From NCBI GenBank assembly GCA_045545475.1, contig JAZQAZ010000041.1:32001-96000 (forward strand): a stretch of 64,000 nt of DNA. The letters are read 5' to 3'. A program made the position numbers and the translations under genes. Shown one piece after another: positions 5,566 to 46,514 of the stretch (within the stretch, counting starts at the first letter, position 1; every line of letters begins with the position of its first letter). The DNA is from Clostridia bacterium. Its GTDB lineage: Bacteria; Bacillota; Clostridia; CAKSNL01; HGM11501. The notes under the pieces were generated by a model that ran no database searches, had not been told where the DNA came from, and saw only the letters and a list, made by a program, of their open reading frames with translations.

Positions 5566-7944
5566 TTATTTCGTTATCGTAATTTCTCTCGTTTCGCCGT
5601 TCCACTCTACATTGTAGCCGAGCTGTTCAGATACGAAGCGAAGCGGAATAAAGGTTCTCGAATCCTTGATTTCAGGAGCAACCCGAAGTGTATAACGGAC
5701 AGGTCCGTAAGTAGGATCATCCACATACACAAGATTGTTTCTGATCTGCATGGTTATATTCCCTGTTGCAGTTTTTATCGTTACAGTCTGATTGTAACCT
5801 TCCCACGAAATTTCCGCACCCATTTCCTCAAGGAGTCCTCTTAACGGAATAAGCGTGGAACTTGATGCCGGATCTATGAAAGGAGCTACATCCATTACCT
5901 TTGTCGTGGTTTCTCCATTTTTTTCCACTACAATTTCGTTAGAATCTATTTTAAGTTTGTAGCTTTCCTTTTTTGCAATCAGTTCATCTTCATAATCGTC
6001 CTTCGCCTGGAAAAAGTTGATATCAGAACAAGCAGCTCTTCCCGAATAGCCCGATAATATGTAGAATCTTATATATCTTGCAGTTACCCTATCGGTAAAC
6101 CTGTACATTCTTGTTTCAAGGCTGTTTTTATTGGTGTAATCGGAAAATACAAACTCCCAGTTTTTACCGTCAAGAGATGCTTCCACTTCGAAGTCGTGCC
6201 ATACTCCGTGAAAATCATCGGTCTGACGCGGTGTATAGGAAAATCCCACAAGTGTGTAGGTATCATTCATATCAATTGTATATGTCCAGGGAGCTTCCAC
6301 ACCGGTCTCTGTCTGCCAAAAGGTTTCATTTGATTTATCCAGTGCCGCTACGGCCTTGCCACCCCAGGTATCAAAATCAGTTTCAGCAGAAAATCTCGTT
6401 TTATCAACCAGATAGAGCTTATTTTTCTCTTCCAGATTGATAAACTCATCATAACTTATCATATCGAGATTTTTATCTTCCTCCATAAAATCAAGCTCTG
6501 CAACAGTTGCAACTCCACCCCTGGAGGATGTAATATTCATTCTTACCTTTCTGACCTTTATATTGCCGTAAAACTTAATATCAGCCCTGCTTTCACTTCC
6601 CGAAAACTCCAGGTCTCTTATTTTTTTAAACTCGCCATCCGCTGTATCAGATACCCAAAGTTCTGCTTCCGTAAATCTTCCTGATGGGCTGTCCTGACGA
6701 GGCAGATATGACAATCCCGAAATCACCACATCCTCCGGGAAGGTTATATCAAGAGTGTAAGGAGGTTCTTCCATCCATACAACAATAGCATCATTTGCGG
6801 TAAACTTAGAATGCCAGTAGGAGTTTTTATCGTCGTCTATGGCACGCTCCGGTCCCACAGATGATGAATTTGATTTTATTGTCCAGTTGTTTTTATCCTT
6901 TAATACAGGCTTTTTCTCTTCGGTAACCGCATTTTTGCTTCCCGGTGCAAAAACATCGATTTCTGCTGCTGTGCAAAAGTCGTCTACGGATTCTGTTATT
7001 ACTATTCTCAGTGCCTTATAAAAGCCTTCTTCAAGATATGCGTCCACAGTCTCCCTTGTTGCCGTAAGGTTATTAGGATATGCCTTTTCTCCTATTTTCT
7101 TGTAGTTTACGCCGTCAACGCTTCCGTAAAATTCTGCCCTTTTCCATATTCCTGCGCCGGAATTATCAATCGTAAGCTGACGCGGTACGTACCTTACTCC
7201 GCCAACATTTAAGGGTTCAGGGAACACAATATCGATTGTAAAAGGAGGCTTGTCCTGACCTGTTATTTCACCGTTTTCCACAGTATAGGCAGAATGCCAC
7301 AGCCACTTCATATCGTCATTAAAGGCGTTATATATACTGTCCTTTTCACTTAAGGTAGAGCTTGCAGTTACAACCCAGCCTTTGGAATCGTATATTTCAC
7401 CAATATCCGATGTCACGCCTTCCGTGCTTTTAAGTACCTCGATTTCTGCCGCGGTACAAAAGTCGCTTTCGGACTGTGTTATAATTATTTTTATTGCCTT
7501 GTATGTTCCGTTTTTCACGGGGATATCTGTGATTTTTCTTGTTGTAATTATATCATTGGGCATCGCAAAGCTTCCTATTTCAAAGAAATCAATGCCGTTG
7601 GTACTGCCTTCAACCTTACCCTTTTGCCATATTCCTGCCGCAGAATTTCCCTGATTTAACTGTCTTGGTGTATAGCGGATTCCGCCTACCTCAATTGCTT
7701 CGGGGAATACTATATCCACATAGAAAGGTGCCTTATCCTGACCGGTAATTTCCCCGTCTTTATCAGTATAGTCAGAATGCCAGAGGTAGTTTGCTTCTCC
7801 GTCAAAGGCATTTCTTATGGTTGAGTTCCCTTTTTCGCTTGATGCCTTAACAGTAAAATTTTTACTGTCGTAAACCTCGGATGCAAAAGAGGGTACCGCA
7901 AGCAAAGTAAACATAATTAAAAATGCTGTTATAAACTTTTTCAT
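5566..7944 (-). CDS. Secreted protein with 4 F5/8 type C (discoidin/CBM32-like) domains and C-terminal copper amine oxidase N-terminal (stalk) domain
   Basis: Signal peptide MKKFITAFL...SFA; four D-x(6)-W(H/Q)(S/T)...PRQ...AE(I/L)-type repeats; C-terminal TLIPLRGLLEEMGAEISW and RTFIPLRFVSEQLGYNVEW. Confidence 0.85.
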   Translation of the reverse strand: MKKFITAFLIMFTLLAVPSFASEVYDSKNFTVKASSEKGNSTIRNAFDGEANYLWHSDYTDKDGEITGQDKAPFYVDIVFPEAIEVGGIRYTPRQLNQGNSAAGIWQKGKVEGSTNGIDFFEIGSFAMPNDIITTRKITDIPVKNGTYKAIKIIITQSESDFCTAAEIEVLKSTEGVTSDIGEIYDSKGWVVTASSTLSEKDSIYNAFNDDMKWLWHSAYTVENGEITGQDKPPFTIDIVFPEPLNVGGVRYVPRQLTIDNSGAGIWKRAEFYGSVDGVNYKKIGEKAYPNNLTATRETVDAYLEEGFYKALRIVITESVDDFCTAAEIDVFAPGSKNAVTEEKKPVLKDKNNWTIKSNSSSVGPERAIDDDKNSYWHSKFTANDAIVVWMEEPPYTLDITFPEDVVISGLSYLPRQDSPSGRFTEAELWVSDTADGEFKKIRDLEFSGSESRADIKFYGNIKVRKVRMNITSSRGGVATVAELDFMEEDKNLDMISYDEFINLEEKNKLYLVDKTRFSAETDFDTWGGKAVAALDKSNETFWQTETGVEAPWTYTIDMNDTYTLVGFSYTPRQTDDFHGVWHDFEVEASLDGKNWEFVFSDYTNKNSLETRMYRFTDRVTARYIRFYILSGYSGRAACSDINFFQAKDDYEDELIAKKESYKLKIDSNEIVVEKNGETTTKVMDVAPFIDPASSSTLIPLRGLLEEMGAEISWEGYNQTVTIKTATGNITMQIRNNLVYVDDPTYGPVRYTLRVAPEIKDSRTFIPLRFVSEQLGYNVEWNGETREITITK

Positions 7945-7957
7945 TTTGTCGCCCTCC

Positions 7958-10675
7958 TTATCCTAAATGATATGCTACGCTCTTTGCCATAGCAACATCT
8001 GCTGTTTTACCTCTTCCGAGAAGGTATAATCCGCTATCAACCGTAATAGTCCAGTCAAAGCAATCGGAAAGATATGTAACGGGAACATAAACCATTCCGC
8101 CCTCTGCGATTGCAGGTGCCGTAAGAGTTCCGATAACTCCGTTTATTCTTACTTCATTGCTTCCGAGTGTTGTATAAGTCCATCTGTAATCGGTGATTTC
8201 ACGGTCAACAAGACGGAACGCCTTTACATATAAAAGATTTCTTGCAGCATCGTATTCAAGCTTTGATTCACCGTACATCATCTCAGCAATAGTGTCCATA
8301 GGAACATAAAGTGTTCCGTTTCTCTCAATGGGTGCAATTCTTATGTCAGGCTCGTAGACAAACACCTTTGCTCCGTCAACAATCATTTTAGTTTTTCCCG
8401 GAGCTAAAATTACGGTATCCGAAAGCGCCTTTCTTTCTTCCTCCGAAAGAGTTGTTTCGGGAATTTCTGTATATACATAATTGAATCTTCCCATAGGTGC
8501 ACTGTTTCCGTCTCTGTATACGTCAAGTATATTTCCGCTTGCGATTTCTCCTGCACCATCAACCCACTTAAATTCCATATCAATTGTTCCCGCAAGGTTT
8601 AAGTCATTTCTGGGTATTGCAACCTGAAGTACATTTCCTTTTACGGTATAATCAATATCCGAAACAGTATTCCATGTGCCGTTTTCCCATTTTTCAAGTT
8701 TTTTATCTGCTCGGTTAAAAGCAAAATCATAGCCTTCCCATCCTGTCGCTCTGTTACGGTCTATATTTATGTAAAGGTGAATAAATTCATTTGTACCCGT
8801 CTTTATAGCTTCCTCTGTCTTTACATAGAAGTAGAGATTTTCGCTGTCACGAGCCACCTTTGCACGGCTTATTGCATTGTTAAGAGTTGTTGTAATTTCT
8901 TTTCCGCCCACAAGTATTCCGTTACGTGCGCTTTGCGCCTTATCGTTTATAAATTCAGGAGTAACACTGTCCCAGGCAGATACATCGCCTGTTATATCAA
9001 TTGTCTTTTCGCTTCCTGCCACAGGCACCGGGCGCACACCTTTATATTTTCTTACAAAGTCGCAAAGGAGGTTGTAATAGTCATCCTTAAGCGCACCGTT
9101 TGATGGTTCCATATCACGGCTGTTTTCATCATCGAAGGTGTCAACGAAAGCATTTTCATAGTTTCCGTAAATCTTGTTACGGATTGCAGTCCATTCATTC
9201 CATCCGTCAATATAACAGAAGGCAGGGTCTGTATCTAAAATCTGTGCCGCCTGCTCACGCATAAAAATAGCGCTTCTTGCGTTGTTGGGGCTGTAATCTT
9301 CGCCGAAGACTTCAGAATATCCCCTTCCCTTTGTATCGGCATTTGACATAATTCCGACCTCGTTATATCCGTAGATATAGGAGTGGTTGATTGCTGTTCC
9401 GAGTGTCATAGCCTCAACTCTTCCATCAGCTCTGTCAGTTCTTCCCCAATGGTGGAGAGGATAGTTTTCAAGCCACTGCCACTGTGGATCCGGCACTTCA
9501 TCGCTGATGCCAAATTCACGGCTTCCGTTTGTTCGTATGTTTACATTGTCAAATATTTCCGTAAGCAAGGCTATAAGCTCGGGATCCTTCTCCTTTTTAG
9601 CCTCATGCATAACCGCGTCTCTTCCGGGAGAGCACACAAGCGGTTTTCCCTCCCACATAAACACAAGGTCGGAATAGGATTCATTTTTAATTACATTAAA
9701 GTAAAATGCCGAAAGAGAATCAAAGGCATACCTTGCATTGAATATGTAGCAGGAAACCTTCGGAGCATCAATCCCGTCCTCTCTTGCATCGTGAAATGCC
9801 GAAAGAAGAACATTCTGAGGACCGACAAAAGTCATATCATTATTGGTGTAATCAAGAAAAATTGCATCTATTCCTGCATTGGCAAGCCACTGGGCGTGAC
9901 GGCGATATACCCAGTATTCATAGGAGGAGTAATAGCCAAGAAGAGGCTCTGCCCAGTAATATACGCCATTTTTGTCCCAGGCTTCATGCTCATAATCGTC
10001 CTTTGAATCGGGATATTTCTTTATTATTTCAGCAGGAATATAGGGATTTACATTACTGCGCTCAAACCAGTTCCAGTACATAATCCCCGTAACGTGTTCG
10101 CCCTCTTTTACGGGACCTGCTTCTTCAAAGGAAGCAACTTTTCGTCCAAGGTCGTCTGTTGCCGCCCAGGTATCTGAATAGTTATCTATAATATTTTCAT
10201 CAGGCACAGGCAGAATTTCAGGAGTATAGCTTTCCTTATTGAAGGTAATGCTCTTTATTTTCACATAATTATCGTGAGCATAGGTTGAGGTTAAATAAAT
10301 ATCGTGTACACCTGATATTTCCTTAATGTTGGCTGTAAACTTACTTTTTTCGGCGTGGTTAACCAAAACATATCCTAAAATTTCTCCTTCGGGATCATCC
10401 GCCTTAACCTTTACGGCATCGCCGTTGGAACCATAGGGCAACAAACAGGACGCTTCAATTGTAACAGATTTTATCCCGGTCATATCAATGCCCTTAAAGC
10501 CTAAATATGCCTTATCTTCAATTACGACATAGCCGTCCTGAACAAAGCGTGCTGTTCCCCTGTCTTCTGCATCCGTTACATTTTTGGTAAGCCCTTCTGC
10601 ATTTATATTAAATGCAAAAAACGATGCTGTAAGACAAAGAATTGTGAGTAATGCAAGTATTTTTTTCATCGCCAT
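7958..10675 (-). CDS. Secreted GH99/GH71-like glycoside hydrolase with N-terminal CBM6-like and C-terminal degenerate stalk domain
   Basis: Signal peptide; FKGIDMTG...SGVHDIYL (CBM6-like); YWNW, EPLLGYY, HAQWLANAGID, GKPLV, GWNEW, RDMEP; C-terminal NGTLYVP/GGMVYVPV. Start placed at the ATG after GAGGGAAGG. Confidence 0.7.
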   Translation of the reverse strand: MAMKKILALLTILCLTASFFAFNINAEGLTKNVTDAEDRGTARFVQDGYVVIEDKAYLGFKGIDMTGIKSVTIEASCLLPYGSNGDAVKVKADDPEGEILGYVLVNHAEKSKFTANIKEISGVHDIYLTSTYAHDNYVKIKSITFNKESYTPEILPVPDENIIDNYSDTWAATDDLGRKVASFEEAGPVKEGEHVTGIMYWNWFERSNVNPYIPAEIIKKYPDSKDDYEHEAWDKNGVYYWAEPLLGYYSSYEYWVYRRHAQWLANAGIDAIFLDYTNNDMTFVGPQNVLLSAFHDAREDGIDAPKVSCYIFNARYAFDSLSAFYFNVIKNESYSDLVFMWEGKPLVCSPGRDAVMHEAKKEKDPELIALLTEIFDNVNIRTNGSREFGISDEVPDPQWQWLENYPLHHWGRTDRADGRVEAMTLGTAINHSYIYGYNEVGIMSNADTKGRGYSEVFGEDYSPNNARSAIFMREQAAQILDTDPAFCYIDGWNEWTAIRNKIYGNYENAFVDTFDDENSRDMEPSNGALKDDYYNLLCDFVRKYKGVRPVPVAGSEKTIDITGDVSAWDSVTPEFINDKAQSARNGILVGGKEITTTLNNAISRAKVARDSENLYFYVKTEEAIKTGTNEFIHLYINIDRNRATGWEGYDFAFNRADKKLEKWENGTWNTVSDIDYTVKGNVLQVAIPRNDLNLAGTIDMEFKWVDGAGEIASGNILDVYRDGNSAPMGRFNYVYTEIPETTLSEEERKALSDTVILAPGKTKMIVDGAKVFVYEPDIRIAPIERNGTLYVPMDTIAEMMYGESKLEYDAARNLLYVKAFRLVDREITDYRWTYTTLGSNEVRINGVIGTLTAPAIAEGGMVYVPVTYLSDCFDWTITVDSGLYLLGRGKTADVAMAKSVAYHLG

Positions 10676-10747
10676 AAAACATCCTTCCCTCATAGCTGTT
10701 TTATCACATCCGTGATATTATCACGGTGTTATATTATGTTTTTTTCA

Positions 10748-10775
10748 TTATACTATCACGAAAAAAAAAAGTCAA
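10748..10775 (-). promoter_or_regulatory. sigmaA promoter of module copy 1
   Basis: TTGACT, 17 bp spacer containing a T10 run, TATAAT on the minus strand. Confidence 0.75.
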
Positions 10776-10860
10776 TATCTATTTAAATTATGACACAATT
10801 TAATAAATTTCAAAATAAGTAAAACGGCAATTCTTGCACAAACTAAGCCTTAAGAATAAC

Positions 10861-10899
10861 AAAAGAGGCTTGTCGATGAAACCACCGACAAGCCTCTTT
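10861..10899 (-). terminator. Intrinsic terminator of module copy 2
   Basis: AAAGAGGCTTGTCG...CGACAAGCCTCTTT inverted repeat. Confidence 0.8.
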
Positions 10900-10900
10900 A

Positions 10901-13825
10901 TTACTTTGTTATTGTAATTTCCCTTGTTTCGCCGTTCCACTCAACCTTATAGCCGAGCTGTTCAGATACGAATCTTAAGGGGATAAAGGTTCTTCCGTCG
11001 TAAATTCTGGGAGGTGCAATTAAAGTATATCTTACCTTATCGTACTTTGCAGGATCGCCGTCGGATACATACACACGATCATCCCATATTCTCATTGTTA
11101 TGGTAATTTTACCTTTTCCGTCTTCTTTGGTTATGCCTATCTCCTGCTTTTCGCCGTCCCAGGTAATAGTTGCTCCCATTTGTTCAAGAAGAACACGAAG
11201 AGGAATAAATGTGATATCGCTCTTTATAAAGGGCGCAACATCGCTTGTTACTGTGTAAGCTTCTCCTGCCTTTTCGGCTAAAATTTCATTTTTACCGATG
11301 GTAAGAACATACTTTTCACTTTCTGACTTTATGAAGCTTTCCTGTCCTTCCTTGCTTCTGTAAACGGAAATTTCAGATGCTGATATACCGTCGCCGATTC
11401 CTGTGTAAACAGTAATTTCAACATACTTTGCCTTTGCGGGAGCAGGAAGATATATAATCTGCTCACGAAGAGCCTTTTCCATCTTTCCTCCGCTTAAGGC
11501 AAGGTCATAGTTTTCGCCGTCCGTGCTTACCGCTATGTCAAAGTCCTCCCACAGACCGCTGAATGCGTAGTGTCTTAAGGGGAATACGGAAATAGCCGCA
11601 ATTTCTGTTTCGGTGGGAAGTGTGATTTTTATGGTGTCGCCCTTCTTACCTGTCCAGTTTGTTGTATAAATTCCGTCATTAAGCTTCTTTATCTGCTCGC
11701 CCGCAGCATCTTCAACAACAGCATTTTCAATTTCGTGTATTCTCACCGAATCATATGCAGAAGCTTCCACGGTTTTAAGCTTTTCGTCGGCTGCGAAGAA
11801 ATTAACTTCCGCCATCATTCCGTAGCCTGCAGGAGTTTCCTTTATCACAACCTTAAGACGCTTTACAATAACATTTGCATGGAATGCTACATACATATCT
11901 CTTTCGGTTTTATCACCTGTGTATTCTCCGATGTGATAAAATTCTCCTGTATCATCGCCGGATACATAAACATCATATAAAGTCGGTCTTCCTCCGACAG
12001 AATCCTGACGTGGAGTCATAACGAAGCCCGAAAGTGCCACAGCCTCTTTTGCCGTAAAGAGCATATCGTGTGGAGGATCTACCTTGCTTGTAATTGTCGA
12101 GCCTTCGTTGGTATAATCGGAATGCCAGTAGCTTTTCTTGTTGCCGTCAAGCGCTCTGTCAAGTTGCTGCCCTTCCTTTGCATTTGATGCAACCGCTGTC
12201 CAGTTTTTCTGAGGAACTATTTTTACGTTTCCGAAGTAGGTATCATCACTGCTTGTGGCAAGAGATGCCATAGCACTTCCCGTCGGAACCGTTCCGTCCT
12301 GTCCTTCTCTGAAGTCAACTTCTCCGGCAGTTGCGAAACCTCCGTTACTCTGTGTAATTTCAATTACAATTTTCTTTGCAAGATAAGTTGTTCCAAGGTC
12401 TATAAAAGCGTCATTTTTTTCCTCTGCATTTATAGTTCCGCTTTTTATCAGAACGGGAGTTTTATCATCATTTTCTGCTGCATATATGTTATACTCTTCC
12501 CATCTTCCCGTTGCAAGATCCTGACGGGGGCTATATATAATAGCATTTATATTTCTTGCCACAGGGAAAGTAAATGTAAGTCTGAATGGTGCTTCGTCAC
12601 GGCTTACGATTGTGCTTCCTTCTGCAGTATAGGCTGAATGCCAGTAGGAATTTCTGTCGCCGTCAATAAGCTTTTTAAGAGAATCATCAGCACCGCTTCC
12701 CTCTATTTTCCACTTCGTCTTATCAGCGCCCTCGCTTGTTGCCTTTTCCGGTTCGCCCAAATCAGCTGTGCCGCCATAACTTTCGGGAGAAACGGTATCA
12801 ACGCCGTCTTTCGCTTTTATAAAATTCATTTCAGCGCAGGTGCCGTAGCTTGCCGAGCTTTCAACTATTTCATACTTAATCTTTTTCACTTCAATATTCT
12901 TTGAAAATTCAGCCACCTTATCAGAGGCATCATCCTTTGCCGTGCCCTTATAAATAAGTACATATGGAGATGAGTCGCTGCTTGCTGCGTAGATATTGTA
13001 TTTTGTTGCACGTCCCACATTCATATCCTGACGGGGTACATAGACAACGCCCGATATTGCAGTGGATGCCGGGAAGGTGTATTCCAATGTGAAAGGCGGG
13101 AAACCATTCACGTCTCCGTCCTTTCTTACATAGCTGTGCCAGTAAGTACTCTTATCTCCGTCGATAGTGTTTTCAGCCTTGTAAAAGTTATCTGTAACAA
13201 CGCTTGAAACAGAAACTTTTACTCCTTTTAAATCAACGCCGTCAAAATTCTTCTTAAGGTCTACACCGTTAACGGTAAATTCCTTTATAGGCTCGCCATC
13301 CGGCTTAACACCGTTTTTTCCCTTTAAGAAGCCAAGCTCTGCTGCAGTGCCGTATTTTCCCTCGCTGGCGAAAATTTCAAGTACAGCAACCTTTGCCCTG
13401 TAGGTTTTATCGAAGTTTGCAACATATTCCGTTTTATATCCTATTGCAATATAGCCTGTATGTACCGCAACCGGTGTGTCTGTTTCATTTTCCGCGAGAT
13501 ACATTGTATAGCCGTGAATTCTTCCAAGCTGCATATCCTGTCTGGGTGTGTAGCAAAATCCCGATATATCACGCACGTCTGGGAATTTCACGGTAATTCT
13601 GTAGGGTGCTTCATGGCGGGCTGTAATTACGCCGTTTTCAGCCTCATAGTATGAGTGCCAATAGGTGTTTATATCGCCATCTATTATATTTTTTATGGAA
13701 TTCTGATAGGATTCGCCGGTAACTTCCCAGGAAGCTTTATCAGTATATTCATTATCTGCCGCAAGGGACATAAATGTTCCCATTGCAAGGGTAAGAGCAA
13801 TTAAAAGTGCTAATATTTTCTTCAT
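10901..13825 (-). CDS. Secreted protein with 5 F5/8 type C (CBM32-like) domains and C-terminal stalk domain
   Basis: Signal peptide; four DG-x(5)-WHS...PRQD repeats plus a divergent fifth (NDGIYTTNW); C-terminal RTFIPLRFVSEQLGYKVEW. Confidence 0.85.
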   Translation of the reverse strand: MKKILALLIALTLAMGTFMSLAADNEYTDKASWEVTGESYQNSIKNIIDGDINTYWHSYYEAENGVITARHEAPYRITVKFPDVRDISGFCYTPRQDMQLGRIHGYTMYLAENETDTPVAVHTGYIAIGYKTEYVANFDKTYRAKVAVLEIFASEGKYGTAAELGFLKGKNGVKPDGEPIKEFTVNGVDLKKNFDGVDLKGVKVSVSSVVTDNFYKAENTIDGDKSTYWHSYVRKDGDVNGFPPFTLEYTFPASTAISGVVYVPRQDMNVGRATKYNIYAASSDSSPYVLIYKGTAKDDASDKVAEFSKNIEVKKIKYEIVESSASYGTCAEMNFIKAKDGVDTVSPESYGGTADLGEPEKATSEGADKTKWKIEGSGADDSLKKLIDGDRNSYWHSAYTAEGSTIVSRDEAPFRLTFTFPVARNINAIIYSPRQDLATGRWEEYNIYAAENDDKTPVLIKSGTINAEEKNDAFIDLGTTYLAKKIVIEITQSNGGFATAGEVDFREGQDGTVPTGSAMASLATSSDDTYFGNVKIVPQKNWTAVASNAKEGQQLDRALDGNKKSYWHSDYTNEGSTITSKVDPPHDMLFTAKEAVALSGFVMTPRQDSVGGRPTLYDVYVSGDDTGEFYHIGEYTGDKTERDMYVAFHANVIVKRLKVVIKETPAGYGMMAEVNFFAADEKLKTVEASAYDSVRIHEIENAVVEDAAGEQIKKLNDGIYTTNWTGKKGDTIKITLPTETEIAAISVFPLRHYAFSGLWEDFDIAVSTDGENYDLALSGGKMEKALREQIIYLPAPAKAKYVEITVYTGIGDGISASEISVYRSKEGQESFIKSESEKYVLTIGKNEILAEKAGEAYTVTSDVAPFIKSDITFIPLRVLLEQMGATITWDGEKQEIGITKEDGKGKITITMRIWDDRVYVSDGDPAKYDKVRYTLIAPPRIYDGRTFIPLRFVSEQLGYKVEWNGETREITITK

Positions 13826-16555: not shown

Positions 16556-16584
16556 ATTTTACCACAAAAAAATGTCCTTTTCAA
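16556..16584 (-). promoter_or_regulatory. sigmaA promoter of module copy 2, overlapping the upstream gene's terminator hairpin
   Basis: TTGAAA-17-TG-n-TAAAAT; hairpin AAATGTCCTTT...AAAGGACATTT at about 16570-16600. Confidence 0.6.
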
Positions 16585-37470: not shown

Positions 37471-38838
37471 ATGATTAAAACATTTCGGGTAACAGATTTC
37501 GGAGCCATTCCTGGCTCGAACGCTCTTCAAACAGAAAAAATTCAGGCTGCAATTGATGCCTGCTTTCTTGAGGGTGGCGGCGAAGTAATAATACCTGCGG
37601 GAACCTTTATAACAGGTTCAATCCGTCTTCGCTCCAACGTAACCCTGCATTTATTAAAAAATGCCTGCCTTAAAGGCTCTAAAAATCCTGAGGATTATTA
37701 TTCCTCTTACATAAATGACAAGATTGAACCCCTTCCCGAAGAATGGATTACAGACGGGCTCTGGAACCGCTTTGGTCCGGGCTGGACAAGGGACTACCGC
37801 TTTATGCGTCTTCCCGGAAGCCGATGGAATCACGGTCTTATAAAGGCTATAAACGCCGAAAACATCGCCATAATCGGCGAAGAAGATTCTTTCATTGACG
37901 GAAGCGACTGCTTTGATGAAAAGGGCGAAGAAGAATACCGTGGTCCTCACCTTATAAATATGTTCTATTGCAAAAACGTAAGTTTTAAGGGATACACGGC
38001 AAAAGACAGTGCAAACTGGGCGCACGCCATATTTTATTCCGAAAACATAACAATGAAAAATGTAACCGTTTTAGCAGGACACGACGGAATACACGCGACG
38101 GTTTGCCGTAATATAATAATAGAAGACTCCGAATTTTATACAGGAGATGACTGTGTGGCAGGCTTTGGCAACTTAAATGTTCTTGTTAAAAACTGTGTGC
38201 TTAACTCCGCCTGCAGTGCTCTTCGCTTCGGTGGTACCAACGCCTTGATTGAAGGTTGTCATATGTATGGTCCCTGCCGCTATTTATTCCGGGGCTGTTT
38301 AACTCCAGAAGAAAAACGCAGCGGAATAAAACCCGATGTCACAACCCACAGAAACAATATGCTTTCTGCATTTACTTATTATTCCGATTTTTCCGTGGAA
38401 GTTCCCTATACCCCCGGAAACATAATAATAAAGGATTGCAAAATAGACTATGCCGACAGATTCCTGCACTTCAATTTCTCCGGGAACGAGCCATGGCAAA
38501 GAAACCGCCCGTTAACTTCCGTTACCTTTGAAAACATCACAGCAACAGATATTTCCATGCCTCTTACGGCTTATGGCGATGCTGATAATAAAATAGACCT
38601 CGTGTTCAAAAACGTATCTATAGCAATGAGAGATGGTTTTTCCGAAGTTCCTTTATTCCATATAGGCAACTTTAAAAAGCTGACCCTTGAAAACTTTACG
38701 GTTACAAATACTGCCGCCCCCTGCTTAGTCAGAACATGGACAGATGATCCTGTTGAATTTATAAATGTTTCATCTCCCATCGTGAATGAAAACCTTGTCA
38801 AAAAAGCTGAAGTTGAATTTTCCGCAAAGCCTATATAA
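37471..38838 (+). CDS. GH28-like parallel beta-helix glycoside hydrolase, no signal peptide
   Basis: VTDFGA...IQAAIDAC...GGGEVIIPAGTFITGSIRLRSNVTLHL; HDGIH, TGDDCVA. Promoter TTGACA-17-TAAAAT at about 37414-37442. Confidence 0.8.
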   Translation: MIKTFRVTDFGAIPGSNALQTEKIQAAIDACFLEGGGEVIIPAGTFITGSIRLRSNVTLHLLKNACLKGSKNPEDYYSSYINDKIEPLPEEWITDGLWNRFGPGWTRDYRFMRLPGSRWNHGLIKAINAENIAIIGEEDSFIDGSDCFDEKGEEEYRGPHLINMFYCKNVSFKGYTAKDSANWAHAIFYSENITMKNVTVLAGHDGIHATVCRNIIIEDSEFYTGDDCVAGFGNLNVLVKNCVLNSACSALRFGGTNALIEGCHMYGPCRYLFRGCLTPEEKRSGIKPDVTTHRNNMLSAFTYYSDFSVEVPYTPGNIIIKDCKIDYADRFLHFNFSGNEPWQRNRPLTSVTFENITATDISMPLTAYGDADNKIDLVFKNVSIAMRDGFSEVPLFHIGNFKKLTLENFTVTNTAAPCLVRTWTDDPVEFINVSSPIVNENLVKKAEVEFSAKPI

Positions 38839-38875: not shown

Positions 38876-38995
38876 TTTTTATGTATAAAAAATCTTCCTT
38901 TGCATAAAGCTTGTCAAGTCCCTCCTCTAAACACAAGCGTTTTACTTTATATGACAAAATTTTCCTCAAAAGGCTTAGTTATGGGGCTTGAAAAG

Positions 38996-39091
38996 TTTTC
39001 CACAACCTTATAATTCACACGCTTTTTAGATGTGGAAAAAGTGGAAAAAGCTGTTGATAACTATAAAATACGGCCTTTTTGCGGTGGATAA
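38996..39091. promoter_or_regulatory. DnaA-box cluster
   Basis: TTTTCCACA (38996), TAATTCACA (39011), TGTGGAAAA (39031), AGTGGAAAA (39040), TGTTGATAA (39052), GGTGGATAA (39083): six boxes within 0-1 mismatch of TTWTNCACA in 96 bp. Confidence 0.7.
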
Positions 39092-39281
39092 TCAGCTGCC
39101 GAAAATATATTTAGATTATTTTTAGATTATGTAATTTATATATAAACGCTCATTAATATTCACGTTTACCATTTTTTCCCAAAAGTTGTTTTTTACAAAT
39201 TTCAGTTTGTTTTTACTATTGTCTTTTTTCTCCCGTTATGCTATACTCCTTTTGACGAATATAGTAAAAGAAGGTTTTCCC

Positions 39282-40709: not shown

Positions 40710-40746
40710 AAAACCTTGGAATTACTTTGTAATTCCAAGGTTTTTT
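40708..40746. terminator. Bidirectional terminator overlapping the araC stop codon
   Basis: AAAAAACCTTGGAATTAC-ttt-GTAATTCCAAGGTTTTTT. Confidence 0.8.
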
Positions 40747-41525
40747 CTCTTTTTATACTCACTTGGTGATATTCCTTCAAGCTCTCTGAAATTTCTGTTA
40801 AAGCTTGCAAGAGACGAAAAGCCCGAGGCAAGTGCCACATCAACCATCGAAACCTTTTTTCCTCTTTCTGCTATAAGTTCCTTGGCATAATTTATGCGAT
40901 ATGAAGCAAGTAATCTCCTGAAGTGCATATTTGTTACCGTATGTAAAGTATAGGATAAATATTTCTCGTTATAACCCAGCTTTTTTGCCAGGTCGCTCAA
41001 TGTTATATTTTCGCAGAAGTTATCCGAAATAAAATTTATCGCCTCCTGGATAAGTTCACCGTTTCCGGTTTTCTTTTCGACCCAGGAAATGTTTTTTGCG
41101 GCATCGGAACACGCTTCATAAAGAAACGAAGCTATCATAAGATAATCATTCCTTTTTACTTTCTCCAGTTTTTCTGTCCATAGGGTTTTATCACTCACCT
41201 TATATACCGGATTTTCCGGAAGAAAGCCCTCAATTTTTTCGAAAAAGATAGGAATAAAGTCATTTGAAAATATTGCTCCGCATACAGAATTTTCTTTTTC
41301 ATTAATATATTCATGGATACGGTGAGGAAGCACTATCACCGCTTCACCTTCATGCACATAATACCTTTCGCCGTCCATTATAACGGTGAGGCAGCCTGAC
41401 TTTACATAAATAATTTCCGTGAAATCATGAAGATGTGCCGCAATCGAATAATTTTCAGAAGAAGAACTCCAGAAATGATATTTTTTACCTGAATTCTGAT
41501 TCTGATATACAATCACGTCTATCAC
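40722..41525 (-). CDS. AraC family transcriptional regulator (cupin sensor plus HTH)
   Basis: HLHDFTEIIYV...HRIH cupin; ITLSDLA...YLS and VALASGFSSLASFNRNFR...PSEY. Divergent from module copy 3. Confidence 0.93.
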   Translation of the reverse strand: MIDVIVYQNQNSGKKYHFWSSSSENYSIAAHLHDFTEIIYVKSGCLTVIMDGERYYVHEGEAVIVLPHRIHEYINEKENSVCGAIFSNDFIPIFFEKIEGFLPENPVYKVSDKTLWTEKLEKVKRNDYLMIASFLYEACSDAAKNISWVEKKTGNGELIQEAINFISDNFCENITLSDLAKKLGYNEKYLSYTLHTVTNMHFRRLLASYRINYAKELIAERGKKVSMVDVALASGFSSLASFNRNFRELEGISPSEYKKRKNLGITK

Positions 41526-41592
41526 TCCTTAATCAATTCTAAATCAAACTTTTTCTCACAGATTAATATCGAAAATCTAACCTTTTGATTAT

Positions 41593-41639
41593 ATTATATC
41601 TTTTTTTTATTAGAATGTCAATTGCAATTATGCTATACT
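41593..41639. promoter_or_regulatory. Overlapping divergent promoters (araC and module copy 3)
   Basis: Minus strand TTGACA-17-TATAAT (41593-41621); plus strand TG-n-TATACT (41631-41639) with a poor -35 (TAGAAT). Confidence 0.65.
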
Positions 41640-41679
41640 TAATACAGAAGACTGTAGATAAATTAAAGGAGGAATAAAA

Positions 41680-44439
41680 TTGAAAAAGATACTTGCATTG
41701 GCACTTGCTTTCCTTATGCTTTGCTCATCTATGTCCTTTGCGGAAGAAAGAAAGTATACCGCAGCTGACATAACAATAAACGAAGGATGCAAAATATCAG
41801 GAAATCAACTTACCCATTTAAAGAGAGGAGAATATTTCGGCATCAAAGGTGTTGACCTTACAGGAATAAAATCCCTCTCTCTCCTCGTAAGTTCAGAAAC
41901 AGAAGCAAACGGAGAAACAATTGTTATAAAGGCCGACAACCATCTCTCGGGACAGGTTTTGGGTACAATTACAATTTCAGGCTCCCATAATAAGGAATAT
42001 CTGTCCACCTCTGTTTTTGAAATGAGCGGCGTGCACGACGTCTACTTCAAAGGCCTTTACGGAAGAGACAACTATGCCATGGATATATTTATAGAAGATA
42101 TTATCTTTTCAAGTGAAGAATACCAAAAGCCGGATCCGAAAAAAGAACAGGTATCCGACTCAGCAATAAAGGATTTTTATCTTGACACATGGGTTTCCAC
42201 CGACAGTTTAGGCCGAAAGGTTGCAGACTTCCCCGAAGTCGGTGCAGTTAAAGAAGGAACCAGAGAACTGGGATTATTATACTGGAACTGGTTTGGCAGA
42301 GGTAAAGGCAGCTACGGTATACTGGAAGATTTAAGAGACGCTCATCCCGAAGCTATGGATGACTTCTACCATCCCGCCTGGATAAAGGACGCAGCTTACT
42401 GGTGGAGCGAACCTGTATTTGACGTTTATTCCTCCCACGATTACTGGGTTTACAGAAAGCATGCAGAAATGCTTTCAATGGCAGGAGTTGACGTTATCCT
42501 CTTTGACTATTCAAACTCAGGCATTGTATACTCAGATGCCGTTGAAGTTTTGGCAAAGGCATTCCGTGATGCAAAAAGTGCCGGTGTAAAAGTTCCTAAA
42601 ATAACCGGTATGTATGCAATCGGCGACGACTCTGAGAGCAATATAAAGAGCTTATCTGCAACATATCACATTTTCTTCACGGAGAACGATTATTCCGACC
42701 TTTGGTTTTATATGGACGGAAAGCCAATGGTGTACACCTATAACAACGCTATACGCTCCGCCGAAAAGGGCGATACATACGAAGCAGAGCTGACGAAAAC
42801 ATTATCCGAATTTTTCACCTACAGAAAGAGCAGCTCAAGAAATGTATATACGCCCGCGCCTAACGGCACAGATTATGAAGATGAAACCTGGTTCTGGCTT
42901 GAAAACTTCCCGCAGCCCATAAGAGGAACAACAGAAAACGGAAGACCTGCCTTTGTTGTTGTGGGTACTGCAATCAATCAGTCAACAATATACGGCACAG
43001 GCGTAACAGGTGTTTTATCCGATCCCTATTCCAAAGGCAGAGGTTTTTCCGAGGTATTCGGCGAGGATTATTCAGAAAACGGAAAGAGAATGGGTTACTT
43101 CTTCCGTGAGCAATCGGCACTGGCTCTTACAGCCGACCCCGAATTTATACTTGTTGACGGCTGGAACGAATGGCGTGCCACAAGATTTTCATCCTACGGA
43201 GTATTCTCAGGCGGCAACATCTTTGTTGACAGCTTCGACTCAGAAAACAGCCGTGACTTTGAACCCTCGAGAGGCCCTCTTAAGGATGATTATTTCAACC
43301 TTTTAGTAGACTTTTCAAGAAAATACAAAGGTGTACGTCCCGCCCCCGTAGCTGCCGGTGCAAAGACCATCGATATGACAGGCGATGCAGCTCAATGGAA
43401 TACTGTAGGGCCCACCTTTTACAATTTTGACCAGAGCTATGAACGTGATTCTTTGGGCTATTACGCTCCCGGAACCACCGAGCAGATGCATTATACCACA
43501 AATGTTGACAACGCCATAATGACCTCCAAGGCAACTTTTGATACCGAGAATATATACTTCCTTGCAAAAACCAAGGATACCCTGAAAGACTCAGAAGGCT
43601 TTATGAATCTTTATATCAACACTGACAGAAACTATGCCACCGGCTGGGAAGGCTATGACTTTGCCGTTAACCTTTCAGGAAAAGGCACTATCTCAAAGTT
43701 TTCCTCTTCCTCATTTACCCCTGAATCAATCGGAAGCGTCGCATACAAGGAAGATGTTAACTATATAATGATTTCTGTTCCGAGAGTATTGATTGGAGAA
43801 ACAGGAACCGTTGACCTTGAATTCAAGTGGACAGACGGAATTAAAAATGACGGAGACCTTTTAACTTTTTACGAGACAGGTTCTGTAGCTCCCTACGGAC
43901 GTTTTAACTATCTGTTTACAGAAATCGAACAAACCTCCCTGTCCTCAGACGAAAGAAATGCTTTAAATGGAGTATCTATACTTAAAGCTGAAGCAGACAA
44001 CATGATTGTTTCAGGCAGTAAAATGAAAATTTACGAAGCTGACTTAAGAATCAAAGCTTATGAGGCAAACGGAACTCTTTACGTTCCCGGCGATTCACTC
44101 CTTGAAATTCTCGGATATGGAAGAAGTAAGGTTGAATACGATCCTTCTTATAACAGCTACTTTATTTACTATTTTGAAATGAACGACTCACTTACAGAAG
44201 TAACAACCAACCGCTTCGCAATGAGCACTTTAGACTCATCAAGCGTATATGTTGACGGAAAAACCCTTCCCTTAAGTGCTCCGGTAACTTCAAAGAACGG
44301 AATAATTTATGTTCCTCTTTCCCTTTTATCAGAGGCTTTCGGCTTTACGGTAACAAATATCGGAGGCGGCATTTACACCGTTTCAGAAAACACACCGGAT
44401 GTAAATCTTATCACGTCCGTATCCGGACATCTTAATTAA
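41680..44439 (+). CDS. Secreted GH99/GH71-like glycoside hydrolase with CBM6-like and stalk domains (third paralog)
   Basis: TTG start after GGAGG; signal peptide; GVDLTG...SGVHDVY; YWNW, WSEP, HAEMLSMAGVD, GWNEW, RDFEP, NYATGWEGYDF, NGIIYVPL. Confidence 0.7.
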   Translation: MKKILALALAFLMLCSSMSFAEERKYTAADITINEGCKISGNQLTHLKRGEYFGIKGVDLTGIKSLSLLVSSETEANGETIVIKADNHLSGQVLGTITISGSHNKEYLSTSVFEMSGVHDVYFKGLYGRDNYAMDIFIEDIIFSSEEYQKPDPKKEQVSDSAIKDFYLDTWVSTDSLGRKVADFPEVGAVKEGTRELGLLYWNWFGRGKGSYGILEDLRDAHPEAMDDFYHPAWIKDAAYWWSEPVFDVYSSHDYWVYRKHAEMLSMAGVDVILFDYSNSGIVYSDAVEVLAKAFRDAKSAGVKVPKITGMYAIGDDSESNIKSLSATYHIFFTENDYSDLWFYMDGKPMVYTYNNAIRSAEKGDTYEAELTKTLSEFFTYRKSSSRNVYTPAPNGTDYEDETWFWLENFPQPIRGTTENGRPAFVVVGTAINQSTIYGTGVTGVLSDPYSKGRGFSEVFGEDYSENGKRMGYFFREQSALALTADPEFILVDGWNEWRATRFSSYGVFSGGNIFVDSFDSENSRDFEPSRGPLKDDYFNLLVDFSRKYKGVRPAPVAAGAKTIDMTGDAAQWNTVGPTFYNFDQSYERDSLGYYAPGTTEQMHYTTNVDNAIMTSKATFDTENIYFLAKTKDTLKDSEGFMNLYINTDRNYATGWEGYDFAVNLSGKGTISKFSSSSFTPESIGSVAYKEDVNYIMISVPRVLIGETGTVDLEFKWTDGIKNDGDLLTFYETGSVAPYGRFNYLFTEIEQTSLSSDERNALNGVSILKAEADNMIVSGSKMKIYEADLRIKAYEANGTLYVPGDSLLEILGYGRSKVEYDPSYNSYFIYYFEMNDSLTEVTTNRFAMSTLDSSSVYVDGKTLPLSAPVTSKNGIIYVPLSLLSEAFGFTVTNIGGGIYTVSENTPDVNLITSVSGHLN

Positions 44440-44453
44440 AGGAGGCGAAGATT

Positions 44454-46514
44454 ATGAAAAAAGTATTAGCTTTTATACTGGTTATAACAACGGCTTTATC
44501 ATTATGTTCCATTTTCTCCTTCGCCGAGGGCGATATGCCGGATACCACCACAACGGCAACGGCAACAGAAGGTCAGTCTCCCATTATGTCCATCACAGGC
44601 CTTCCCACAGTTGACAGAACAAACTGGACTGTCACAGTAAACACCACCCGTCCCAATTGTGCGGAAAGAGTGCTTGATGGGAATGACAAAACCTTCTGGC
44701 ATTCAAATTATATGGATGAAGGCGGCGTAATTTACGCAAGAGATGAAGCCCCCTACACCATGGAATTCACATTTCCGGAAGAAACCTCTATTTCCGGTTT
44801 CATTTTACTCCCCCGTCCTGACGGTACAACCGGAAAAATAATTTCGCTCTATTTCGAAGCATCTGAAACGGATTTCGGAGAATTCGAAAGAATCACAGAG
44901 GATATAACCTTAGGAGCACATAACAAGGAAATTATTCTTCCTTACAACATAAGTGCAAAAAGAATTAAAATGACCATCCTCTCGGGCGACAAAGGCTATG
45001 GTACCCTTGCTGAATTTTACGCAATAAAAGCAGACAGCAAAAAGACCGAAGCGTCTTACTCAGAAGTATTAGAATCAGAAGTATCCATCCCCGTTGACAA
45101 AACTGTAACAGGAAAAGCGGCCGACAATCAAACCCCGGTTTCTGCTCTTAACGGCCTTTCCTCCGTTGACAGAACAGGCTGGATTGTAAAGGTGGATTCC
45201 GCCCGTCCCAACACCGCTGAGAAAATGCTTGATGGTGACAAGTCAACCTTCTGGCATTCAAACTTTGAAACCGCAAACGAAGCTGTTGTCTCAGCCGATG
45301 AGGCTCCCTTCACCCTTGAATTCATCCTTCCAGAGGAGGCGGAAATTTCCGGATTTATATTGTTCCCGAGAACCGACCTCAATATCGGCAGAATAGCTTC
45401 CGCTTATTTTGAGGTTGCTAAAGACGATACATCGGAATATTTCAAAATTACCGACGAGCTTTCATTTGAGACAAGTGCAAATCAGCAGGAAGTGGTTTTT
45501 GCCTCCAATATAAAAGTCAAAAAGATTAAAATGACCATAACCAATGGAAGCGGTGGCAAGGGAACACTGGCTGAATTTTACTGCATTTCACCAAGCGAAG
45601 AGTACAACACCGTAAGCTACGAAGAATTTTTAGAAAATGAAAAAGAAAACAAGCTTTATATAGTTGATAAAGCCTCCATAACCGTGGAATGCGACTACCC
45701 CATATGGTCTACCAACAACATCGCCAAAGTAACTGACGGCCTTACTACCAGCATCTGGCAGACAGATACTATTTCAGAATCCTACGCTCCTCCCATTTTA
45801 ATTGATTTCGGCAAAGTTCAAAGATTGGTTCGTATGGATTACACTCCCCGTCAGACAGAGGACTACGACGGTTTCTGGTATACCTACGACGTATACGGAA
45901 GTGTCGATGGAGATAACTGGTTTGACGTTGAAACAAATGTAATGAACGAAAAAAGCCTTCTTACCCACTCCCTTATATTCGACGAAGAGATAAGCGTAAG
46001 ATACCTTGAAATTAACGTAACAAAATATCACAATAACCGTGTTTCTGCCGCAGAGCTTACATTCTATCAGACAAGGGAAGCATATGAAGCCTCCGGCGTG
46101 GGAGCTTTCGGAAACTATGAACTCACGATAGGCAAAAAATCCATCCTTATCGAAAAAGGCGGAGAGGTAACTGAAAAAGAAATTGACGTCGCTCCCTACA
46201 TTGTCGGAGGAACCACACTAATCCCCTTGAGAGGATTGCTTGAGGAAATGGGTGCAGAAATTTCCTGGAACGGTGAAAAGAGTGAAGTAACCATAAAAGC
46301 ACAGAACAAGGAAATAGTTCTTCAGATTTGGAATAAACGTGTATATGTTAAGGATAACCGCTACGGAAACATCATGTATACTCTTCTCACGTATCCGGTA
46401 ATAAAGGATTCCCGTACATTTATTCCGCTGAGATTTGTTTCGGAACAGCTTGGCTATAATGTAGAATGGATCGGCGAAACTCAAACCATAAAAATAACTG
46501 CTCCGGAAAAATAA
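44454..46514 (+). CDS. Secreted protein with 3 F5/8 type C (CBM32-like) domains and C-terminal stalk domain
   Basis: Signal peptide; LDGNDKTFWHS, LDGDKSTFWHS, TDGLTTSIWQT; TLIPLRGLLEEMGAEISW, RTFIPLRFVSEQLGYNVEW. Confidence 0.85.
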   Translation: MKKVLAFILVITTALSLCSIFSFAEGDMPDTTTTATATEGQSPIMSITGLPTVDRTNWTVTVNTTRPNCAERVLDGNDKTFWHSNYMDEGGVIYARDEAPYTMEFTFPEETSISGFILLPRPDGTTGKIISLYFEASETDFGEFERITEDITLGAHNKEIILPYNISAKRIKMTILSGDKGYGTLAEFYAIKADSKKTEASYSEVLESEVSIPVDKTVTGKAADNQTPVSALNGLSSVDRTGWIVKVDSARPNTAEKMLDGDKSTFWHSNFETANEAVVSADEAPFTLEFILPEEAEISGFILFPRTDLNIGRIASAYFEVAKDDTSEYFKITDELSFETSANQQEVVFASNIKVKKIKMTITNGSGGKGTLAEFYCISPSEEYNTVSYEEFLENEKENKLYIVDKASITVECDYPIWSTNNIAKVTDGLTTSIWQTDTISESYAPPILIDFGKVQRLVRMDYTPRQTEDYDGFWYTYDVYGSVDGDNWFDVETNVMNEKSLLTHSLIFDEEISVRYLEINVTKYHNNRVSAAELTFYQTREAYEASGVGAFGNYELTIGKKSILIEKGGEVTEKEIDVAPYIVGGTTLIPLRGLLEEMGAEISWNGEKSEVTIKAQNKEIVLQIWNKRVYVKDNRYGNIMYTLLTYPVIKDSRTFIPLRFVSEQLGYNVEWIGETQTIKITAPEK

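Follow-up and report, generated by a model that had tools for sequence, protein, structure and literature searches.

The question raised by this locus is why the same ordered two-gene unit occurs three times in one window (the whole stretch of DNA analysed, 64,000 nucleotides) from an uncultured, likely gut-dwelling Clostridia bacterium, and what the two products do together. The first gene of each unit, A, encodes a signal peptide, a CBM6-like domain, a GH99-like barrel, a beta-sandwich and an A-type stalk. The second gene, B, encodes a signal peptide, an array of F5/8C (CBM32-like) domains and a B-type stalk. On balance, the units probably encode secreted enzyme-lectin heterodimers which dock one-to-one through their C-terminal stalks and which capture and cut diverse extracellular glycans.

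ORF and domain searches placed A1 (905 aa) at 7958..10675, B1 (792 aa, four F5/8C domains) at 5566..7944, A2 (893 aa, with the architecture of A1) at 13841..16522 and B2 (974 aa, five F5/8C domains) at 10901..13825, all on the minus strand. On the plus strand, A3 (919 aa, TTG start), defined by its ORF and an AlphaFold model, is at 41680..44439 and B3 (686 aa, three F5/8C domains) is at 44454..46514. All six genes and the three to five F5/8C domains per B protein are thus as given in the original prediction. The open frame of A1 reaches 10693, and the start at 10675 is favoured by an RBS-like GGAAGGA. The gaps between A and B are 13, 15 and 14 bases in pairs 1, 2 and 3, respectively, with GGAGG ahead of every B start, in agreement with the predicted 13-15 bp. 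All six proteins pass the PF07833 cut-off of 24.2 bits (B, 102-131 bits; A, 26-39 bits), which confirms a stalk on both partners. The A proteins of the window are 41-42% identical in pairwise comparisons and the B proteins 30-37%, and NCBIfam has no name for any of the six.

The claim that each pair has its own promoter and terminator held in part. A sigma-70-like consensus match (TTGACT-17-TATAAT, 11/12) precedes A1 at 10747..10775 and a promoter-like match with an extended TG (10/12 plus TG) precedes A2 at 16556..16584, both on the minus strand, whereas the scan of the plus strand just ahead of A3 found none and a TG-n-TATACT was noticed there by eye only. Promoter-like sites in the region numbered 31 against 31.0 in shuffles, and so are not in excess. 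Terminator-like hairpins were found by the scan 3' of B2 (10862..10899, minus strand, 17 pairs) and between B3 and the convergent gene (46517..46546, no strand assigned). The hairpin 3' of B1 (5533..5561, minus strand; 9-pair stem, 9-base loop and T run) is weaker, was missed by the scan and was seen by eye, and the 70 bases of this region give -9.9 kcal/mol. In a search for expression, no sequencing run contained half of the query words. A contig from an RNA library covers the A3/B3 junction (44200-44596) with three differences; an assembled contig of this kind is evidence neither of transcription nor of one transcript for both genes.

The description of the pairs as triplicated is correct for the window and understates the genome, in which 42 copies of gene A were found. 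B comes directly after A for 41 of these, and in the remaining copy one inserted 274-aa ORF separates the two; together the pairs make up 8% of the DNA of this 2.7-Mb genome. In relatives, B was next for 140 of 143 A genes with an A-type stalk, compared with 0 of 20 homologues without that stalk. An exception is L148, an A gene whose stalk is apparently intact and which has no B behind it. That neither gene occurs without the other, as first noted for the window, holds almost without exception for stalk-bearing A genes. The A and B trees, the congruence of which had been proposed as a check, share 18 of 38 splits (at most 3 in shuffles), and in 27 of 41 pairs A and B have their nearest paralogues in one and the same other pair. 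Neither of the two computable conditions that would have refuted the original prediction, unlinked genes and incongruent trees, was thus borne out for stalk-bearing A genes. Strong conflicts come only from two A genes, in which the barrel belongs with one clade and the stalk with the clade of B; the breakpoint is near residue 745-765, in a case that was picked out after the fact and falls short of significance (AU p=0.056). The A-B order is obligate, the genes have duplicated as a unit to 42 copies, and in the genomes searched the A-type stalk occurs in a single family. Linkage and congruence of this kind are expected from co-duplication of any operon, however, which counts against docking.

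A weak search of longer proteins found no full-length A-B fusion. Its single match carries a PF18657 annotation only, with no F5/8C domain or stalk by our own profiles. The tails of P0117 and P0125, which are about 1,510 aa long, are of other kinds. In P0084, a deletion that removes the A stalk joins in frame one pair like those of this genome (98.7% and 95.7% identity); this protein is not counted as a fusion and may have arisen in assembly.

The folds of A and B are established as predicted models. The AlphaFold model of A3 (pLDDT 93.5, pTM 0.93) comprises four regions, all on the plus strand. First, residues 23-147 (41746..42120) form the CBM6-like domain, on which profile search and fold match agree (2v4v; Z 17.4, rmsd 1.8, 117 aligned), as had been predicted. 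Second, residues 165-552 (42172..43335) form a predicted (beta/alpha)8 barrel of GH99/GH71-like fold (6zdc; Z 18.7, rmsd 4.1, 270 aligned). Third, residues 553-747 (43336..43920) form a CBM9-like or Sas6-like beta-sandwich (7uwu, Z 11.9; 1i82, Z 10.6). Lastly, residues 748-919 (43921..44436) form the A-type, PF07833-like stalk, by profile and by fold match (1d6u; Z 10.9, rmsd 1.6, 74 aligned). PDB 5ngw is also among the fold matches of A3 (Z 16.9). By sequence, A1 had no match in the PDB at E<=1.

The GH99 endo-alpha-1,2-mannosidases/mannanases human MANEA (6zdc) and BxGH99 (4ad5) resemble A in the barrel, where 6zdc is the best match, and in an N-E motif after a late strand. Weak matches to PF16317 occur in distant A homologues (19.5-29.8 bits against a 33-bit cut-off), with no match in A1-A3. 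However, identity to GH99 is 14-15%, A lacks EW[H/G]E, the catalytic motif described for GH99 (PMC11025385), and A adds a CBM6 domain, a beta-sandwich, a stalk and an obligate partner gene. The GH71 alpha-1,3-glucanases Agn1 (8yfh) and AnGH71C (9fnf) also match the barrel (Z 15.2 and 14.4) and, like A, have a barrel followed by a beta-sandwich. In contrast to them, the A copies lack the DYGE catalytic motif, and the A sandwich resembles CBM9 and Sas6 folds; in the search with the A3 model, the GH71 structures align with residues 190-555 only.

The predicted active-site stretch of A3 (43162..43230, plus strand; paralogue alignment) contains W495-N496-E497 and D517 and has no acid at E+3. All 41 A paralogues keep W495, N496, E497, D517, R525 and D526 unchanged; the binding loops of the barrel are variable. 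None of the 42 copies has an acid three residues past the invariant Glu, where the D/E-x-x-E pair has its second acid, and among wider representatives only 2 of 150 matches to the motif do; E497 is here equated with the first Glu of the GH99 motif by motif and position and not by residue-level superposition. GH99 and GH71 are described as needing the E+3 acid (PMC12394665, PMC11025385). Since A lacks the acid-x-x-Glu pair of both families, it belongs to neither, and of the predicted GH99/71-like enzyme the fold stands and the catalytic motif does not. A is best described as a predicted glycoside hydrolase whose GH99/GH71-like family is unclassified.

The missing acid would also fit a catalytically dead barrel that acts as a glycan receptor, which would make the unit a two-part lectin or sensor. 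This seems quite unlikely, as the six invariant residues argue against it, and so does the free-standing occurrence of the same module, as in secreted enzymes, with CBM6, CBM35 or CBM32 arrays, with a dockerin or with a tail for type IX secretion. The catalytic module comprises 708 clusters at 50% identity (E<=1e-30). Without the A-type stalk it is common elsewhere and unpaired. In favour of a docked pair, it is joined to F5/8C domains in one chain in 6 of 151 representatives by our own profile, and additionally in P0192 by Pfam. Atlas clusters for the barrel query are unnamed or loosely labelled GH99/WbsX and those for the sandwich query are unnamed, and both serve as leads only. In the catalytic-enzyme reading that we prefer, E497 would act with D517 or another acid that replaces the missing E+3 residue. 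By analogy with GH99 and GH71 the substrates may be alpha-linked glycans; this assignment and cell attachment are among the weakest steps of the proposal.

The B proteins contain F5/8 type C beta-sandwiches (PF00754, 127-172 bits), and the B3 model (pLDDT 87.7, pTM 0.54) matches CBM32 structure 2v72 (Z 20.7, rmsd 1.5). The CBM32 domains of Clostridium perfringens NanJ (2v72), GH31 (4lks) and ZmpB (7jnb) share this fold (Z 19-21), and their His and Arg are kept in most B domains. In B, by contrast, the domains are on a protein of their own in which no catalytic domain was recognised, and the last of them mostly lacks the His. All B copies end in F5/8C-F5/8C-stalk; the front is variable, and some variants carry long non-lectin repeats. 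Counts for the His and Arg positions gave the W-H motif in all 41 penultimate domains, in 69 of 75 front domains and in only 6 of 41 last domains, and P-R in 33 of 41, 67 of 75 and 37 of 41, respectively. The canonical galactose site of CBM32 is described as His, Arg and Asn plus two aromatics (PMC5291390). Because the last domain so seldom keeps the binding His, the Gal/GalNAc binding originally proposed cannot be assumed.

The B-type stalk of B3 (residues 550-686; 46101..46511, plus strand; alignment and model) contains a lineage-specific hairpin at residues 629-643. Of 157 paired B stalks, 104 have the hairpin motif, whereas of the genome's 29 other stalk proteins only one has it, a contig-edge fragment.

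Covariation between A and B was concentrated in the stalks. Among 157 pairs, the inter-protein couplings that passed two filters were 4 of 9,594 stalk-by-stalk and 0 of 174,534 elsewhere, at thresholds chosen post hoc, an effective depth of about 94, and with columns and sequences that are not independent. Couplings with z>4 occurred at 4.8 per 10,000 between stalks and at no more than 1.6 in the 11 other inter-protein region pairs. The coupled residues are 819, 824, 826, 828 and 857 of A3 and 584, 610, 626, 628 and 649 of B3, and the four couplings mostly join complementary residues. The pairs 828-626 and 857-610 stayed within the top 0.2% and the top 0.91%, respectively, in 6 of 6 split halves and ranked 17th and 3rd of 184,339 on a stalk-free tree, on which 824-649 fell to rank 293. 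Like charges were avoided (observed versus expected, 1 versus 7.0 and 1 versus 22.2; for 819-628, 2 versus 20.2). The tree-based co-change test alone gave no regional enrichment, with 18.9 per 10,000 for stalk-by-stalk and 19.1 for barrel-by-B-stalk. As judged from these alignments, the stalks of A and B have co-evolved. Of the two options first proposed, docking or co-anchoring through the stalks, the covariation thus backs docking, although the tree-based filter by itself does not.

Co-anchoring without docking would have both stalks bind one wall or S-layer receptor separately, with A and B cooperating through co-production and proximity. It accords with the lack of enrichment in the co-change test and with the 29 other proteins of this genome that carry ordinary stalks, many of them partnerless. 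PF07833 proteins are reported in a Firmicute surfaceome (PMC4137172), and the domain lies beside cohesin in cell-surface OlpC and in ScaG (PMC3413522). No alternative anchor was detected: LPXTG motifs and membrane segments were absent from 42 A and 42 B proteins, and a lipobox-like motif occurred in one A. Nevertheless, a shared receptor would predict neither pair-specific, charge-complementary changes between stalks nor a hairpin limited to paired B stalks and missing from unpaired F5/8C-stalk proteins, and we regard co-anchoring as unlikely.

Docking also has a structural precedent. The stalks of A and B share family and fold with those of E. coli amine oxidase (1d6u) and Paenibacillus PaSOD-1 (8IMD), and in PaSOD a Firmicute PF07833-like half-domain is reported to be a homodimerisation module (PMC10432803). 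In contrast to that homodimer, A and B carry two diverged, co-varying stalk subtypes on two proteins, which points to a heterodimer. Each stalk consists of two repeats, however, and these may pair within one chain like the two PaSOD subunits, which counts against docking. In the preferred reading, A and B would be co-transcribed and Sec-exported, and their stalks would bind directly with roughly two-fold pseudo-symmetry, the A hairpin 819-828 and A857 lying against B residues 584, 610, 626, 628 and 649. B would then be an interchangeable targeting arm whose CBM32-type domains serve A. Variable barrel loops would tune the paralogues to separate substrates, and a neighbouring AraC activator would further tune some of them.

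AraC genes are enriched ahead of A: 12 of the 42 copies have one upstream, compared with 72 of 652 operon-first ORFs (p=0.002). For example, a cupin-AraC regulator identified by profile search is divergent from A3 (40722..41525, minus strand) and is a candidate inducer-sensing activator of pair 3. No shared operator was evident by eye upstream of the 42 A genes. The docked pair might instead serve no feeding role, as a diversified surface family that attaches to or attacks other microbes at their capsules and walls, or as a changeable coat that protects from phages or from host defences. Such a role would suit the 3-47 matches per genome in close relatives, the variable binding loops, the B variants with non-lectin repeats and the few ABC sugar-binding proteins (5 PF01547 matches in the genome, none adjoining a pair). 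It is improbable in view of the AraC enrichment, the glycosidase-like appearance by eye of some neighbouring genes, and the long divergence of the copies (mean barrel identity 44.5%) with near-identical counterparts retained across species at 88-91%, a pattern unlike antigenic cassettes.

In cellulosomes and amylosomes, an enzyme is bound non-covalently to a non-catalytic partner bearing binding modules. A and B would share this working principle if docking holds. However, the six proteins of the window had neither a cohesin nor a dockerin in Pfam scans (four dockerin matches genome-wide lie in three other ORFs), as predicted; the docking fold is unrelated; and there is apparently one enzyme per partner in 42 operons. 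Polysaccharide utilization loci (Bacteroidetes Sus and Gram-positive) likewise form many parallel units of enzyme and binding protein, some beside sugar-type regulators, but the present unit has no transporter gene and repeats one enzyme family 42 times in place of a mixed set. Searches of the openly accessible literature found no description of the A-B pair or of a stalk heterodimer, in line with the original prediction; supplements of MAG catalogues may list the genes. Stalk docking of an enzyme with a lectin partner has apparently not been described before.

PF07833 occurs on many Firmicute surface proteins without a settled role, and the more than 150 cognate pairs are a natural library in which the question can be addressed. 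The five residue pairs named here for mutation make docking directly testable. If docking is true, the stalk is a module unrelated to cohesin-dockerin and possibly a set of orthogonal protein connectors. A bolder extension, which we hold only tentatively, is that the stalk is a programmable, pair-specific docking system and a third route of extracellular enzyme assembly in addition to cohesin-dockerin and Sus. About ten facing residues would then form a code by which up to about 45 pairs assemble within one envelope with little cross-talk, around a new GH family with an acid pair unlike that of GH99/GH71. The role of the stalk on many other Firmicute secreted proteins would be explained as well. 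With its altered active site, the catalytic module represents a large unclassified family adjacent to GH99/GH71. Since so large a share of the genome is devoted to one unit, the bacterium likely lives on a glycan class still to be assigned.

Each of the three gene pairs in the window encodes a protein A (A1-A3: CBM6-like domain, GH99-like barrel, beta-sandwich and A-type stalk) and, directly after it, a partner protein B (B1-B3: F5/8C, CBM32-like, domains and a B-type stalk), the stalk being the PF07833 domain (copper amine oxidase N-terminal). The six ORFs and their order were found as originally predicted, with GGAGG sites present and 13, 15 and 14 bases between A and B. The predicted three to five F5/8C domains were counted as 4 in B1, 5 in B2 and 3 in B3, and PF07833 was strong in all three B proteins. 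In A1-A3 the Pfam match to this stalk was weak, and the barrel gave zero Pfam matches. Identity among the three pairs is 41-42% for A and 30-37% for B. The prediction that each pair has its own promoter and terminator held only in part. Promoter-like sites lie 5' of A1 and A2, but such sites were no more frequent than in shuffled sequences, and none was found on the plus strand immediately 5' of A3; hairpins follow B2 and B3, with a weaker one after B1. Glycan-related ORFs in the window include a stalk plus GH26-like ORF (22932-24881, minus strand), a polygalacturonase-PglB-like ORF immediately after pair 1 (4245-5486, minus) and a GH28-like ORF (37471-38838, plus). A secreted GLUG-repeat protein with an unannotated C-terminal domain (46549-48297, minus) is convergent on B3. 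Two ORFs upstream of pair 2 (16612-17952 and 18056-19258, both minus) belong to no Pfam family, the second having a faint GH42 match (E 0.031).

The source genome (G000; 2.74 Mb, 95% complete) contains 42 full-length A genes, and the next gene has F5/8C domains in 41 of them. In the 42nd unit, a 274-aa xylose-isomerase-like TIM-barrel ORF (PF01261; L105:5519-6343) lies between A and B. The A genes and their following genes occupy 220,567 bases, or 8.05% of the genome. The 70 bases 3' of B fold at -15 kcal/mol or below in 35 of 41 cases, a count that has no shuffle control. All complete B proteins end in F5/8C-F5/8C-stalk, with a single exception that has an extra C-terminal extension. The region in front is variable: it can be empty, add as many as three F5/8C domains or contain other repeats that span as much as 900 residues. 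For example, in the variants at L105:6394-10416, L106:5010-8924, L107:4809-7988, L108:4900-7215, L018, L021 and L043, 300-900 unannotated residues, partly repeats and with weak pectate-lyase-like adhesive matches, replace the front F5/8C domains while F5/8C-F5/8C-stalk is retained. The B protein at L109:4939-8520 has a degenerate stalk followed by Listeria-Bacteroides/InlB B-type repeats. G000 also has a third gene immediately after B (C30:120999-122534; F5/8C-F5/8C-ordinary stalk), a truncated copy of the N-terminal part of A roughly 2 kb 5' of a complete A gene (C8:104979-105689) and four proteins of 108-148 aa that are nearly all stalk domain (C3:17267, C24:47471, C24:47912 and C50:5279), which are candidate adaptors or fragments.

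Outside G000, every one of 13 genomes from its family has the barrel, with 3-47 matches each (a match count that does not give copy number), as does 1 of 27 genomes from other families. For the A-type stalk, the count was 9 of 9 within the family against 0 of 390 other scored genomes of the class; no more than 8 candidates per genome were scored, and one genome was left unscored. Related loci come from MAGs labelled Clostridia, Bacillota or uncultured Ruminococcus, and a gut habitat is inferred because several record titles name goat or sheep colon. Linkage was counted in loci L001-L200 after removal of 9 own-genome loci, 37 duplicates, 10 genes truncated at the 3' end and 8 with fewer than 600 bases of space. 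The proposed pairing was borne out in these pooled relatives: of 143 genes that carry the A-type stalk, 140 precede an F5/8C gene, versus 0 of 20 that lack it, these 20 coming mostly from two genomes in regions picked by the analyst. In one of the three exceptions B is cut by the locus end and is 65% identical to a known B; in another the B region is split into two ORFs (L142:1738-4508). The third is a true orphan (A at L148:178-2877), with a class II aldolase next instead of B. Taken alone, the catalytic module has a wide distribution, with 2,101 clusters at E<=0.001 and 708 at E<=1e-30; it usually lacks a stalk and is often fused to CBM6, CBM35 or F5/8C domains, to a dockerin or to a type IX secretion tail. 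Stalk-less modules include a separate expansion in one genome (G027, 17 matches; L083-L092) and 1,640-aa forms in another (G012; L074-L077). Two A-family enzymes (L067:5332-8649 and L078:627-3728) are without a B gene and carry an ordinary stalk, possibly the ancestral, self-pairing state. In the representative protein P0084, the A gene is joined in-frame to its own B gene by a deletion, with loss of the A stalk, which is either a real variant or a misassembly.

The A3 model (pLDDT 93.5, pTM 0.93) is confident and predicts a rigid protein. Compared with known structures, residues 23-147 resemble CBM6 (Z 17.4), residues 555-753 the Sas6 and CBM9 folds (Z 11.9 and 10.6) and residues 801-889 the E. 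coli amine oxidase stalk (Z 10.9, rmsd 1.6). The barrel (residues 165-552) best matches GH99 MANEA (Z 18.7, rmsd 4.1, 270 aligned), then 5ngw (Z 16.9) and GH71 (Z 15.2 and 14.4); Foldseek concurs on CBM6 and GH99/GH71. The catalytic motifs described are EW[H/G]E for GH99 and DYGE for GH71 (PMC11025385, PMC12394665, PMC13421300). The predicted GH99/GH71-like assignment stands for the modelled fold but not for the motif: an acid at E+3 is found in 0 of 42 A copies, and A is therefore a relative of GH99 and GH71 and a member of neither. All 41 paralogues compared keep W495-N496-E497, D517, R525 and D526 unchanged, and D517 is the inferred candidate for the second acid. That A is a catalytically dead enzyme serving as a receptor was judged quite improbable.

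The B3 model (pLDDT 87.7, pTM 0.54) predicts beads on a string, its domains having CBM32 folds (2v72, Z 20.7). The binding His is retained in 41 of 41 penultimate F5/8C domains, 69 of 75 front domains and 6 of 41 last domains. Since CBM32 specificity is described as poorly predictable from sequence (PMC5291390), Gal/GalNAc is a mere default guess for B. Neither an LPXTG motif nor a membrane segment was found in the 42 A and 42 B proteins, among which one A has a lipobox-like motif. In G000, dockerin matches occur in 3 other ORFs and SLH repeats in other proteins. That A and B are anchored side by side independently of each other was judged unlikely, given the stalk couplings described below.

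A-B distances are correlated across 41 pairs (Mantel r 0.19-0.54, the maximum for A stalk versus B core), and the nearest paralogue is the same for A and B in 27 of 41. Tree congruence, proposed as a check, was observed: catalytic-part and B-core trees have 18 of 38 splits in common, compared with at most 3 in shuffles. These shared splits show co-duplication, not binding. Four strongly supported conflicts all come from two A genes (C10_148828 and C19_1237), in which the barrel groups with one clade and the stalk and B with another. In C10_148828 the switch falls around residues 745-765, where sandwich and stalk meet, and it is less clear in C19_1237; the AU test gave p=0.056.

Covariation was calculated from 157 cognate A-B pairs (about 94 effective), with residues numbered as in A3 and B3. 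For corrected mutual information at z>4, stalk x stalk gave 4.8 pairs per 10,000, similar to most single domains (3.7-7.0), versus at most 1.6 for the other 11 inter-protein region pairs. Tree-based co-change alone did not single out stalk x stalk (18.9 vs 7.7-19.1). With both scores required to exceed 3.5, and columns restricted to those having 20 or more changes and less than 10% gaps, all four inter-protein survivors were stalk x stalk (4/9,594 vs 0/174,534), although these thresholds are post hoc and the columns are not independent. The survivors are A828-B626 (K-E 29 times, F-W 21, Y-R 17), A857-B610, A826-B626 and A824-B649; A824-B584 and A819-B628 follow closely. The strongest within-protein pairs (A121-A143, A296 Arg-A337 Asp, A752-A917 and B240-B376) look like true contacts, as judged from secondary structure. 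Split-half analysis (six halves) never placed 828-626 outside the top 0.2%, 857-610 outside the top 0.91% or 824-649 outside the top 2.4%; 826-626 dropped once to 8%. With a stalk-free tree, the couplings ranked as follows out of 184,339 pairs: 3 (857-610), 13 (826-626), 17 (828-626), 66 (819-628), 293 (824-649) and 305 (824-584). Like charges were scarce at three couplings (1 vs 7.0 expected, 1 vs 22.2 and 2 vs 20.2) and not as scarce at the remaining two that were tested. In an alignment read by eye, A826-828 corresponds to B611-613 and A857 to B631; the couplings therefore run both ways across matching patches, as expected of a pseudo-two-fold heterodimer. A hairpin motif is present in 104 of 157 paired B stalks versus 1 of 29 other stalk proteins, the one being a contig-edge fragment. 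Two unpaired G000 proteins (C10:135334-138285 and C24:159-3083) do not have this motif; each combines three F5/8C domains with an ordinary stalk and a tail that, by eye, resembles an SGNH hydrolase. The five coupled A positions form 39 different strings in 41 pairs; some paralogues share strings, and thus strict insulation between pairs is not established.

Of the 42 A genes, 12 have an AraC gene no more than 1.3 kb upstream, compared with 72 of 652 ORFs that come first in an operon (p=0.002); G000 has 90 AraC-family matches in its 2.74 Mb. None of the five PF01547 sugar-binding-protein matches in G000 adjoins a pair. A surface family with a non-nutritional role was considered improbable.

A PF07833-like half-domain from a Firmicute is described as homodimerising (PMC10432803), and PF07833 is reported on surface proteins and scaffoldins (PMC4137172, PMC3413522, PMC11557425). 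Outside subscription papers and supplements, literature searches returned no paper on the A-B pair or on stalk heterodimers. The A-B stalks may, tentatively, be a new pair-specific docking system. The system is likened to a minimal cellulosome, but without cohesin or dockerin and resting instead on an unclassified hydrolase-like family. In the proposed mechanism, A would be a rigid CBM6-barrel-sandwich-stalk enzyme whose stalk docks on the B stalk, and B a flexible CBM32 string that tethers docked A to substrate. On this reading, judged the most probable, each operon would yield an exported 1:1 A-B complex, and duplication of the whole unit, with changes in barrel loops and matched changes in both stalks, would have produced a panel of specificities.
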